Below, piece by piece: positions 17,413 through 32,643 of a stretch of 64,000 nt of DNA. Where the stretch lies: positions 1-64,000 of the IMG/VR virus record IMGVR_UViG_3300037453_000168; one strand, written 5' to 3'. Position 1 is the stretch's first letter. Every line of letters begins with the position of its first letter. This stretch comes from a virus. Lineage: Duplodnaviria > Caudoviricetes. The position numbers were made by a program, and so were the translations under genes. The notes under the pieces were generated by a model. That model had not been told where the DNA came from, searched no databases, and worked only from the letters and a program-made list of their open reading frames with translations.

Positions 17413-17643
17413 ATGGAAGGACATATTTCAACATTGAACATCGGACTTCTTTACGAAATCCATCAAAAGACGTTCAATCCGCAGAGGTACGAGCCTAAGG
17501 ATTTGGACGTGGATTTGCTCAATCTCGAATCGGTAGGATACATCGTCTACAACGGCAATCCCTCCGAGGTCGCTATAACGGAGAAGGGCGCCGAGGATTT
17601 GAAGGCGATTATCACGGAAATGATGGAGGGAGTGGATGGATAA
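17413..17643 (+). CDS. Winged-helix protein
   Basis: LLNLESVGYI..VAITEKG. Confidence 0.7.
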   Translation: MEGHISTLNIGLLYEIHQKTFNPQRYEPKDLDVDLLNLESVGYIVYNGNPSEVAITEKGAEDLKAIITEMMEGVDG

Positions 17644-17647
17644 AGAT

Positions 17648-18565
17648 ATGGAAACGGTGCTTGTGAGCCATTCGGATTTGGACGGCTACGGCAACAACAT
17701 CATAATATAGACCTATCTCGGGCATATACGTTCTTTCAATATCGGATACAGTGATTTGGAGACCGTGTTGGTTGCGTTGCCCGACAACATACAGCTAATC
17801 ATCACGGACCTGTCGATTCCAGAGCGCACATCCCCGATGCTGGAACGTTTCGCCCATGTGATAATAATAGACCACCATATCACGACCCAATGGGCGGTGG
17901 GATGGGCGGAGAGCACGGGCAACGAGGCCATCGTGGATACGTCGAGGTGTGCCACATGGCTGACATACGAGTACATGAAATCGGTCTACGGGTTCGGCTC
18001 GGAGAAGATGACCTGTTGGGCCAGACTCATAGACGATTACGACAGATATGTTCTGCAATATCCCGAATCAAGACGTCTTAACGTGCTTTTCAACATAACG
18101 GCCGACCCGATAAGGTTCGTGAGGGACGGCATGGAGAAACATCCCGAGACATTGCTGAACCGTGAGTCCGATGATATTGATTACTATCTCGAACAGCAGA
18201 GGAAGTACATAGACAAATCGACGATGTTCGTTCTCAACTACAAGCCGTAGGTCGTGATGACCTTCGCTGAAAGGCACAAATCCGCTATGGCGGAGATAGC
18301 GATTGCCGAGGGGGGTGTGGATTTGTTCTACGGTGTAGACCTGCATTCGATGACGGTCTCGATACGTTCGTCTGTGAAATCCAAGATTGATTGCACCAAG
18401 GTGGCGAAGATGATTAATCCCGATGGCGGAGGCCATCGCAATGCCAGCGGTGCATCCATATCCAACTGGTGCGTCGGATGGAACAATGTGGAGGTCGGGA
18501 CATTCTGTATGCCCCTGTCGTTCCCGTCGAGGGACCTGCCTACCTATTCGGAGGAATCGGAATGA
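17648..18565 (+). CDS. DHH/DHHA1 phosphoesterase with two in-frame TAG codons (17708, 18248)
   Basis: SHSDLDG (before TAG1), IITDLS, IIIDHH, and GGGHRNASG (after TAG2) all lie in one frame. Confidence 0.88.
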
Positions 18566-26813: not shown

Positions 26814-26861
26814 GTACCGATTATACGGTACTTATTTAATAAAGTGCGGAGATATCTTGAC

Positions 26862-27473
26862 ATGGTGTTCAGTACATCGGGCAACAGCAGTCCGAGGATT
26901 CAGCCCGACAGATGGGAGCGTGAGATTGAGTTGCAGAAGACGTCCAACCTCACCCCGTCCGAAGCATCCATATACGTCGCAAGGGAGAGCGGACTATCCC
27001 TCTCGGACATAGCCGACGTTCAGGGTCTTAGCATCCAGACTGTGAAGAACACGCTAACGACCGCACGCAAGAAGATAAACGGAGAGGGTACGATGGAGTT
27101 CTATATCTCTAAGACGAATCAATCGAACAACGATAGTTCGATGAACAAGCTGAATCTGTCACAGGTTCTGTCCTATCTCTGCAGAGAATTGGGATACGAC
27201 GTCCTGATGATGTCGCATACAATCGTAATCAAGGGATTCGATAGGACGGTGCCAGGGGATTACAGCTGGTTCAAGGACAATGTGGAGCGCATGGTCGATA
27301 TGATAGGCACTCGCAACGATGCTATGGCATCGGAGAGGGCAAAGCGCATGGTCGCAGTCTATAAACAGCGCATGATGGAGCAGGAGGTAAAGACCCCTAT
27401 GTTCGGACATGCGGTACTGAAATACTATCTGGATAGATACTATATCCCCTATGACGTGAACGAGGTGGATTGA
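26862..27473 (+). CDS. LuxR/sigma-region-4-type HTH protein with C-terminal domain
   Basis: LTPSEASIY..GLSLSDIADVQGLSIQTVKNTLTTARKKI. Confidence 0.75.
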   Translation: MVFSTSGNSSPRIQPDRWEREIELQKTSNLTPSEASIYVARESGLSLSDIADVQGLSIQTVKNTLTTARKKINGEGTMEFYISKTNQSNNDSSMNKLNLSQVLSYLCRELGYDVLMMSHTIVIKGFDRTVPGDYSWFKDNVERMVDMIGTRNDAMASERAKRMVAVYKQRMMEQEVKTPMFGHAVLKYYLDRYYIPYDVNEVD

Positions 27474-29345: not shown

Positions 29346-29379
29346 GGCATGTAAGAATCTATCGAATGGAGGAAATGAA

Positions 29380-30508
29380 ATGAGCGAAACAGAAGACAGG
29401 TACAAGTGGCAAAACGAGATATACCCGAAGTGGGCTAACCAGAACTACGTCGGTCTTGTGAAAGCGTCGACAGGAGCAGGTTAACGGCAAGACCATAGCG
29501 ACATGTAAGACCTTGCAACAGTTCCAGCAAGACCATCCGTTCGATGATATACTCGTGGTAACACCATCGTCCAAACTCAACAGGATGTGGGAGGACGAAC
29601 TGAAAAGGTATATGATTACCAATTTCAAAGTGATGACCTATCAGACCGCAGTCAACCGTATGCAGAGGAACGGGCTGACCTGCCGTTGTCTTATCTGTGA
29701 CGAATGCCACCGTCTGGCCACACCTGTCCAAGGCCGTGTCCTCGAAATGCAACCGAGATACGTCCTCGGACTGTCGGCCACGCCAGAGGGTGCGCTGGAT
29801 ATCCTCGGAAAGCCGTTGGTCGATATAGACGTGAATCAGGCCAATCTGTGCGAGTTCACGGTACACTACACATCGTTCCCCATGTCCGCATCCGAGAGGG
29901 CGGAATATGATGATATAACACGTCGCATGAGGTCGAGGGCATCGCAGGTGACGGACGGCATGGCCACATCCCTACCTCCTGGCAGAGATTCATACGGCTG
30001 GGGCTCATACGATGCTCTCGCTCGCAAGAGAAGGGATATAGTCTATAAGCAGACCTCACGCATACCCTACACGGTCGCACTCGTCAAGAGGTACATCACA
30101 TCGCGCATCATAATCTATACGGAACGTAGGGAAACGATGCACCGCATAGTACAGGCTCTGATGGACGAGGGGATACAATCGGTGGATGATTCCAATATAC
30201 AAGCCTACGAGGACGAACGTGTCAATGTGATGGTCCTATGCGGAAGGCTCCGTGAGGGTTTCAACAGCGTAACGACCAACATAGTCATAATGGCATCCAT
30301 CAATACAGGGGTCATAAAGAACGTTCAGACAATCGGAAGGGCATTGAGGGTAGACCCGAACAATCCTGATAAGAGGGCGCATATATTCCTGCTCATAGCA
30401 CAGGGGACATCGGACGAATCGGTCATCAGGAATACGGGCGCATATTACAAAGGGCATTCGAAGGTATCGACTATACAGCAGGAACTCGGACAGAACGTGA
30501 TAGCATGA
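29380..30508 (+). CDS. SF2 (DExH) helicase, interrupted by a 7-nt insert in Walker A (recoded or pseudogene)
   Basis: N-terminal part ..KASTGAG-TAA; GKT resumes in the +1 frame at 29486; DECH, SATP, QTIGRALR motifs downstream. Confidence 0.85.
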
Positions 30509-31047: not shown

Positions 31048-32643
31048 ATGGTTATCAAGAAGGAGGGTAAACGTCAGTTCCAAGATTATACCGTCGATGA
31101 ACGGCAGATAATCTGGGACACTCTGGTCGATGCTCTTGACGAAGGCGGTCACGATATCTATTCCAAAGATATTATGCCGAATCTTATCGAATCCGAGAAG
31201 GAATACATGGAGCGTGAGCAGTTCTATGGAATAAAGTTCGACCGCAACAATTTCAAGGACTTGTATGTAATCTCGATTCTGGATGGTAATTCGATTGACC
31301 CTACCGAATCCGTTGATTTCGACAAGATTCTTAGCGATGCGAAGAACAACGGGAAACAGCAGGGGGTTCTCGACGATACGCCTATGGACAAGTCGAGGAC
31401 GAAGAAGGGCGGTATGTCAATAGATGACCCCGATTTCGATGAGGTCGAGGAAAGGCTGTTCGATTTGGAGCAGGCCCTTTATAACAAGCCCACATCGTCC
31501 GTCGATTGGGATTCTCTTATCGAATATGATGAATTATACAACAGGTTTCATGGTTCGCATTATGTCTCCGACTATCAACTGCTGACAGACAGCAATGCAA
31601 GGAACGTCGTGGACAACTATCTGGACTTCGTAGCTTGGAACAATCACGGCAACGAATCGCATTGGATGGAGTACCCCGAGTTCCTGTTCCAGCCCTACAC
31701 CGAGCCACAGGATATACTTCGCCATATGGAGGAACAGGGCGATATGGATTATTACGAATCCAATGATAATGTAAGGAGAGTTGTAGATATGCTACGTTCT
31801 GTGAATAAATCGAAGAAATCCAAGACTAAGAAGGCTCAGATTCTCACAGGCATGTTCGGGGATGACGATAGATTCTACAAGAGGATTCTGGAACTCGCAG
31901 AGCAGTACGCACCGCATTGCACGAAGATTTATGCTGATATGGCAACGGATATCGTATGGGACTTGCCGTCTGGAAACCACCCAGGATTGTTCCTGTCCTA
32001 TCATGAGCATGAGGGTGAATCGTTCTTCACAGGCTCTGTCACGGCTTGGAGACACCTTGAGTTCCCTGAGAACACAGCCGACGGGGAAATGCCCGAGCAG
32101 ATGGGCATTCTCGCAAGGACGATGATAGACCAGTCCAATAGCGGAGGAATCTCCGAGAGCAATCTCATAGCCTACATGCAGGAGATGGATATCATGTGTG
32201 CGGAATTACAGAACATGACGAAATCCAAGACCAAGAAGGACGAGAAGAAGATTCCTGTCTCCGATGATGATACCGTGGAGATTGAGGAAATGGACGGGAA
32301 GAGGTACGTCGAAATCGAACCCAAAGAGGAACACGCAGAGGAAGTCCAGACAGGTTACGAGAAGGAATCTGATGACCTCAATACCGAGGACAACATCACG
32401 CATCCAGATACATCCAAACCGAAGAAGTCCAAGACCAAAGAAGTCGTGAAGATGAACCAGTCGCAGTCGATGGAGGTCTGCATGGACTATCAGTTAAGGA
32501 ACAACCGCATAGGGCTCACCAAGTCCGAGATTATCCAGATGACTGGAAACGACCCCGAGCAGATATTCAGGCCGTTCATATCGTCAGGCAGGATAGCGAA
32601 GGTGAAGTGCTCTGACGGATACATATACAGATTCAGGATGTGA
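31048..32643 (+). CDS. Acidic protein segmented by KSKTKK motifs (putative internal head protein)
   Basis: KSRTKK, KSKKSKTKK, KSKTKK, KKSKTK motifs separate acidic domains. Confidence 0.7.
   Translation: MVIKKEGKRQFQDYTVDERQIIWDTLVDALDEGGHDIYSKDIMPNLIESEKEYMEREQFYGIKFDRNNFKDLYVISILDGNSIDPTESVDFDKILSDAKNNGKQQGVLDDTPMDKSRTKKGGMSIDDPDFDEVEERLFDLEQALYNKPTSSVDWDSLIEYDELYNRFHGSHYVSDYQLLTDSNARNVVDNYLDFVAWNNHGNESHWMEYPEFLFQPYTEPQDILRHMEEQGDMDYYESNDNVRRVVDMLRSVNKSKKSKTKKAQILTGMFGDDDRFYKRILELAEQYAPHCTKIYADMATDIVWDLPSGNHPGLFLSYHEHEGESFFTGSVTAWRHLEFPENTADGEMPEQMGILARTMIDQSNSGGISESNLIAYMQEMDIMCAELQNMTKSKTKKDEKKIPVSDDDTVEIEEMDGKRYVEIEPKEEHAEEVQTGYEKESDDLNTEDNITHPDTSKPKKSKTKEVVKMNQSQSMEVCMDYQLRNNRIGLTKSEIIQMTGNDPEQIFRPFISSGRIAKVKCSDGYIYRFRM

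Follow-up and report, generated by a model that had tools for sequence, protein, structure and literature searches.

A stop-containing 7-nt insert in the Walker A motif of phage helicase genes: a candidate ribosomal hop between matched glycine codons

Natural programmed translational bypassing is known to us from very few systems: gene 60 of phage T4 and its homologues (the T4 bypass was reportedly described by Huang in 1988), the byps of yeast mitochondria, and a candidate in Streptomyces phages. In gene 60 the Gly codons match and a stop follows the take-off site; the gap is 50 nt long and comes with a hairpin at take-off, a signal in the nascent peptide and a cassette for the MobA endonuclease (Manning and Atkins, bioRxiv 10.1101/2022.08.31.505936). 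Much shorter bypasses, of 7-10 nt, have been proposed and partly shown in the terminase genes of Streptomyces phages: that of phiHau3 spans 10 nt, is triggered by a rare UUA codon and has partial mass-spectrometry support in E. coli, while a 7-nt case is found in a prophage of S. catenulae (PMC10732093). Stop-hops and hungry-codon hops have also been obtained in the laboratory in E. coli, at low level and in engineered or over-expressed genes (Weiss et al. 1987, as cited in PMC10732093).

The locus described here lies in a window of 64,000 nt (the whole stretch of DNA analysed), itself part of a 78,931-bp virus record, in which a helicase gene is split inside its Walker A motif. The sequence at 29470-29494, ACA GGA GCA GGT TAA C GGC AAG ACC, is exactly as an initial annotation of this DNA had set it out. 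That annotation also gave the gene an N-terminal stretch of 33 codons preceded by an SD element; the element is borne out, but the codons number 34. The DECH, SAT and QTIGR motifs that it described as intact are all present in the downstream frame. The features, all on the + strand, are these:

29368-29372, + strand: SD-like GGAGG, 7 nt 5' of the helicase ATG, read directly from the sequence.
29380..29481, + strand: helicase part 1, 34 codons, ATG through the take-off Gly, with ...V-K-A-S-T-G-A-G as the last residues; uninterrupted homologues align with it at their N-termini.
29437..29512, + strand: patch around the junction with unusually high nucleotide conservation among interrupted genes, from comparison of pairwise identities.
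29479..29481, + strand: proposed take-off codon GGT (Gly34); GGT in 4/6 and GGC in 2/6 interrupted lineages.
29482..29485, + strand: gap TAAC, proposed to be untranslated, consisting of the in-frame stop TAA and one pyrimidine; TAA in 6/6, spacer C or T.
29486..29488, + strand: proposed landing codon GGC, which the same peptidyl-tRNA-Gly would re-pair with and which would not be decoded a second time; GGC in 6/6 interrupted lineages.
29489..30508, + strand: helicase part 2, from the Walker A Lys-Thr to a TGA stop; Pfam ResIII, PHROG DNA helicase, with XPB/Rad25 as the closest solved structure.
29699-29710, 29774-29782 and 30326-30340, + strand: the part 2 motifs DECH, SAT and QTIGR, respectively.

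In the second frame the open stretch is 29462-30508, with ...V-N-G-K-T-I-A-T-C-K-T... ahead of the three downstream motifs. In the window this frame holds no ATG, GTG or TTG ahead of the landing codon; its first start is a TTG at 29513, nine codons past the landing site. Removal of the 7 nt leaves one stop-free ORF in every interrupted copy, and the single Gly codon that precedes the Lys in uninterrupted genes aligns with the landing GGC.

In Pfam the downstream part hits ResIII at E 1.3e-11, a score that clears the curated cutoff, and an uninterrupted relative used as query matches the PHROG DNA helicase family (E 3e-32) and the archaeal XPB/Rad25 structures (E 4.6e-11). Motifs I (GxGKT), II (DExH), III (SAT) and VI (QxxGRxxR) of the SF2 helicases occur in order alongside the family HMM match, and motif I is complete only when the junction is crossed. 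Uninterrupted homologues down to 36% identity carry xT[GSA]xGK[TS] and show no length variation from the N-terminal WQ motif to the P-loop; from the WQ motif to beyond GKT there is no indel in ~30 homologues, and archaeal XPB aligns ungapped over the same segment.

The reading that we prefer, with a probability of roughly 0.55, is that the gene would produce one full-length XPB/ResIII-like SF2 helicase of ~367 residues by means of a programmed short translational bypass, or stop-hop. The ribosome would translate 34 codons, leaving peptidyl-tRNA-Gly (anticodon GCC) on GGU in the P site. When the stop UAA entered the A site, a fraction of ribosomes would let the tRNA leave GGU rather than terminate; the tRNA would slide 7 nt and re-pair with GGC, and decoding would restart at AAG to give ...A-S-T-G-A-G-K-T..., as in the insert-free relatives. 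Under standard wobble pairing a single tRNA-Gly(GCC) can read GGU as well as GGC, and the take-off and landing codons are cognate for it in all six interrupted lineages, each of which has the stop TAA immediately 3' of take-off; between take-off and GGC no triplet is cognate for this tRNA. The product of such a hop is colinear with every uninterrupted homologue, which supports the proposal of the initial annotation that a hop from GGU(29479) to GGC(29486) would regenerate TGAGKT. Among the readings considered, only the hop would give the spacing between WQ motif and P-loop that characterizes the family. That a Gly-to-Gly hop, from GGY to GGC over UAA, yields the canonical protein is slightly favored by the odds; its role is probably either to set the dosage of the helicase or to accommodate an insert that is retained for some other cause.

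The resemblance to T4 gene 60 lies in the matched Gly codons of take-off and landing, in the stop directly 3' of take-off, and in the setting: an insert in an essential phage DNA-metabolism gene, patchy among relatives, whose product matches uninterrupted homologues residue for residue in its layout. The differences are considerable. From take-off to landing the helicase gap measures 7 nt (4 untranslated bases) against 50 in gene 60; no take-off stem-loop was detected at the helicase junction; no homing endonuclease adjoins the helicase, which is not extended at either terminus; the enzyme is a helicase rather than a topoisomerase; and the codon pair is GGY/GGC rather than the GGA/GGA of T4.

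Nearest in size to the helicase insert are the Streptomyces cases, which likewise consist of a frame-breaking insert of 7-10 nt in a conserved phage enzyme gene with relatives that lack it, and for which the same argument holds, namely that a +1 frameshift would add residues at a conserved junction. They are triggered, however, by UUA, a rare sense codon linked with the development of the host, whereas in the helicase it would be a UAA stop. The Streptomyces cases are few, while the helicase insert is found in six diverged lineages and is accompanied by selection statistics; on the other hand, phiHau3 has its partial mass-spectrometry support and the helicase hop is a proposal from sequence. 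With the E. coli stop-hops, as they are described in the paper that cites them, the proposed mechanism shares the re-pairing of peptidyl-tRNA to a nearby cognate codon over a short distance with a stop or slow codon in the A site; it differs in that the helicase case is a natural, conserved feature of a gene under selection. A full-text literature search returned no paper describing coding gaps in a helicase Walker A motif.

A search of 5.8 billion proteins returned ~33 homologues of the helicase, all metagenomic; 13 of them, 62-73% identical to the window, make up a crown group. Seven crown members (P0003, P0004, P0005, P0006, P0008, P0010 and P0012) are uninterrupted proteins of 365-370 residues with ...ASTGAGKT... 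or near variants. The remaining members are annotated as truncated or oddly started proteins, and their DNA carries the same insert at the same codon. The arrangement GGY TAA Y GGC thus occupies one codon position in six lineages, the window and five diverged metagenomic ones: the take-off codon is GGT in the window, L001, L003 and L004 and GGC in L002 and L186; the stop is TAA throughout; the spacer is C in the window and L002 and T in L001, L003, L004 and L186; and the landing codon is always GGC. Alignment of the DNA with four uninterrupted genes reveals a clean 7-nt insertion.

Three near-identical contigs from other samples (L188, L189 and L190) also carry the insert. Together with one ENA contig, known from its gene calls only, the window, L001-L004, L186 and L188-L190 make up ten insert-bearing contigs. 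The initial annotation had pointed to related viral helicases as the place to look for the same 7-mer, and the insert, with its C/T variation, is present in L001-L004, L186 and L188-L190; an assembly artefact, or an insert unique to one assembly, both of which had been entertained, is excluded by the occurrence of the insert in ten contigs from different samples. Homologues outside the crown group, down to 36% identity, are all uninterrupted. Deposited phage records contained no DNA or protein match to the window; IMG/VR, the JGI metagenomes and the GTDB genomes yielded only distant helicases (<=28% identity) and one 50% relative, L005, with no more interrupted copies among them; and a second protein search with a family profile added no close relative to those already listed.

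Several of the database entries call for comment. In L001 (473-1555), L002 (3001-4077), L190 (3001-4191) and the P0037 cluster, gene callers have carried the downstream helicase frame back to an ATG that lies upstream and out of frame, and the resulting chimeric N-termini, e.g. MDCGRNRGTSDWYR..., overlap the true first-frame N-terminus. These proteins with chimeric N-termini are annotation artefacts.

By itself the 10-mer GGYTAAYGGC is not rare (one match against 0.25 expected by chance), and the significance of the site therefore lies in its conservation and not in the motif. In this respect the two Gly codons stand apart: take-off is GGY in 6/6 and landing GGC in 6/6, while other invariant Gly columns in the interrupted genes use all four codons, and Gly codon use in both the helicase genes and the genome is even (GGY about 0.5). 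Uninterrupted genes also mostly have GGC at the landing position (3/4) and the patch is generally conserved, so that the invariance of the landing codon is weak evidence only.

Synonymous sites between interrupted lineages are saturated (pS of 0.7-0.8 in the C part), and dN/dS for the C part is 0.10-0.16 wherever it can be computed; most pairs give 0.06-0.17 for the N part, with one value of 0.42 (based on only ~7 synonymous differences) and one pair for which it is not computable. Taken alone, these between-lineage ratios could reflect divergence that predates the insert. A more direct view is provided by the close pair L003/L188, both of which carry it: here 34.2 synonymous differences stand against 8.8 non-synonymous ones, a dN/dS of 0.065 (binomial P of 2e-15 overall, 0.0035 for the 32 codons of the N part and 2e-14 for the C part), with no stop and no indel. 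Because the insert is present in both members of this pair, the selection on both parts is selection within the interrupted gene. Neither a stop nor an indel occurs in the ~1,110 nt of any of nine interrupted copies. We conclude that the interrupted gene is under purifying selection in its N and C parts alike, in keeping with the description of its flanks as undecayed in the initial annotation. A recent inactivating mutation, one of the alternatives raised there, is excluded by the retention of the insert in six lineages together with this selection; so too is relaxed selection downstream of the insert, including in the close pair.

The G-K-T codons right after the stop vary synonymously only (AAG/AAA, ACC/ACG), and in the window no start reaches them; it follows that ribosomes must pass the junction and switch frame. 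Recoding of some kind at the junction we hold to be likely.

The alternative that survives best is a programmed +1 frameshift at GGY UAA Y, in which the U would be skipped, AAY read as Asn, and GGC AAG ACC decoded thereafter to give ...T-G-A-G-N-G-K-T.... Classically, +1 frameshifting is set off by a stop in the A site, as in prfB, and the helicase junction shares with the prfB-type site (CUU UGA C) both this stop and the net frame change of +1, along with a possible SD-like AGGAG upstream in some copies. The gap TAA-Y fits a +1-frame Asn codon AAY equally well: the codon is AAC or AAT, always Asn, in the six lineages, its C/T alternation (the sole variation in the gap) is synonymous, and TAA is invariant. 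The product would, moreover, retain GxGKT. Set against this is the chemistry of the shift itself, since tRNA-Gly cannot re-pair in the +1 position, where GUU or GCU presents a central mismatch with the anticodon GCC. The product would also gain two residues, Gly-Asn, inside Walker A, in a segment without an indel in ~30 homologues or XPB. As to the upstream element, AGGAG is found 2 nt before the take-off (or shift) codon in 4/6 interrupted genes, and AGGCG in the other two; the same GGAGC is found in 2/4 uninterrupted genes. Missing from two of the six interrupted genes and present in two of the four uninterrupted ones, AGGAG does not seem specific to the insert. On balance we regard the +1 frameshift as unlikely.

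The distribution of the insert bears on a second alternative, in which the break is never translated across. The tree was built from the helicase body with the junction patch left out. On this tree the insert requires five changes by parsimony, at least three of which are forced by well-supported branches, and it is no more clustered than shuffled labels: interrupted L002 is sister to uninterrupted P0010, and interrupted L186 to uninterrupted P0008. Identity among the interrupted genes peaks at 0.84 in the ~45 nt before the junction, compared with 0.63 elsewhere in these genes; in the same patch it is 0.66 between interrupted and uninterrupted genes and 0.60 between uninterrupted pairs. The conserved patch is either a co-conversion tract, left by an insert that spreads through recombination, or the product of a cis-acting constraint. 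P0010 has an N-terminal protein sequence of the interrupted type and no insert, a pattern that fits precise loss.

Such scatter, within a patch that resembles a co-conversion tract, would fit a picture in which the interrupted genes were defective or dispensable helicase alleles, the insert spreading by recombination or gene conversion (for example through protection from a site-specific nuclease) or the alleles being complemented by co-infecting phages. Defective alleles are hard to reconcile with the strong purifying selection on both halves, which the L003/L188 ratio shows also after the arrival of the insert, and with frames that, once the 7 nt are removed, are open in all nine copies. Searches of the window's genome for HNH, HNH_3 and GIY-YIG genes produced no match, and the neighbors of the helicase are the same small ORFs at interrupted and uninterrupted loci. 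An untranslated break is, in our judgment, improbable.

Less probable still is a third alternative, according to which the 7 nt are removed or neutralized before translation, as a micro-intron, by RNA editing, by transcriptional realignment or through a subpopulation of insert-free DNA. The existence of insert-free related phages shows that precise loss happens over evolutionary time; but there is no homopolymer on which slippage could occur, 7 nt is below the size of any known intron or archaeal bulge-helix-bulge site, and the insert is present in contig after contig from different samples. Nor does RNA structure lend support: at the junction no conserved stable structure was found (z-scores of single-sequence folds from -1.7 to +0.1), and no Rfam family matched. 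The consensus fold is weak and has one covarying pair, between the third base of the Ala codon GCR and the spacer Y, which may be a single event, L001 and L003 being sisters. The lack of a conserved hairpin counts against the hop as well.

A two-piece helicase, or a downstream part started independently (by reinitiation after the stop, or at an internal or out-of-frame start), is the least credible alternative, for although TAATG lies at the junction in 4/6 lineages and gene callers have used a second-frame ATG upstream in L001, L002 and L004, the ATG of TAATG belongs to the third frame, TAAC in the window and L002 offers no ATG, the second frame of the window opens only at 29462 with no start before GKT, a start past GKT would give a product without Walker A, and upstream of the junction conservation at the protein level is in the first frame.

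Other candidates were rejected. Reassignment of TAA to sense fails because the first frame meets more TAA and TGA stops within ~20 codons; no suppressor or unusual tRNA was found in the genome, nor indeed any tRNA gene. A mobile-element footprint around TTAAC, listed as an alternative in the initial annotation, and with it a footprint of the TTAA transposon type, fails because relatives have TTAAT, CTAAC or CTAAT in its place. The HpaI site GTTAAC is confined to the window.

The genome in which the window lies encodes a terminase, a portal, a tail tube, a tape-measure-like protein and a tail protein, and is therefore that of a tailed phage. The first 126 nt of the record (1-126) are repeated exactly at 78788-78913, close to its other end, and beyond the repeat the two sequences differ. 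Although classed as linear and 75% complete, the assembly probably represents an almost whole genome that is circular or terminally redundant. A genome-wide scan for further hop-like junctions was noisy, with the helicase site among the few having a short gap and no start in the landing frame. Upstream of the helicase, in the window (26844-27473) and in all relatives, is a gene for a sigma-70 region-4-like helix-turn-helix protein (PHROG RNA polymerase sigma factor, E 2e-5), which hints that the host is bacterial and not archaeal. A DHH/DHHA1 phosphoesterase-like gene at 17624-18562 is whole only if in-frame TAG codons at 17708 and 18248 are read through; it has weak Pfam matches on both sides of the TAG codons and is one ORF of 311-318 residues in L104 and L190. 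TAG may be a sense codon in this phage genome.

Between a conserved 95-residue gene and the helicase is a variable slot, occupied by a 57-residue ORF, a Tad2-like gene of 102 residues, a 69-residue ORF or nothing (L098 2835-3008, L102 2693-3001 and L188 2675-2884, versus window 29346-29379); the content of the slot is uncorrelated with the presence of the insert. Two genes downstream of the helicase, several relatives (L098 4889-7113, L190 4954-7191) encode a protein of 900-990 residues with Zeta_toxin/AAA_33 domains, and YodL in one; at the matching position the window (31048-32643) encodes an acidic protein of 531 residues with no family match.

Given the scatter of the insert and its conserved patch, one may ask what maintains an insert that breaks the frame within an ATP-binding loop. 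One conceivable answer, which we offer as speculation and think rather unlikely, is that the insert is a tiny heritable hop cassette, carried by recombination from one related phage helicase gene to another along with a short co-converted stretch. The cassette would be kept since it alters the DNA that codes for the P-loop, a highly conserved target of site-specific nucleases or other sequence-directed attack; the hop over UAA would keep the helicase functional and tie its level to the termination capacity of the cell. Were this so, the link to termination could matter in a phage that seemingly reads TAG as sense.

Interrupted genes of this kind are misannotated by gene callers as truncated or chimeric, as seen in P0002, P0007, P0009, P0011, P0013, P0036 and P0037. 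If the hop reading is right, the helicase junction would be a minimal 7-nt bypass, conserved across diverged uncultured phages, in which a stop lies between matched Gly codons and neither a hairpin nor a nuclease partner is evident; it provides a compact construct in which the minimal needs of hopping could be tested. Hopping would then be something that ribosomes do dependably with hardly any signal in cis.
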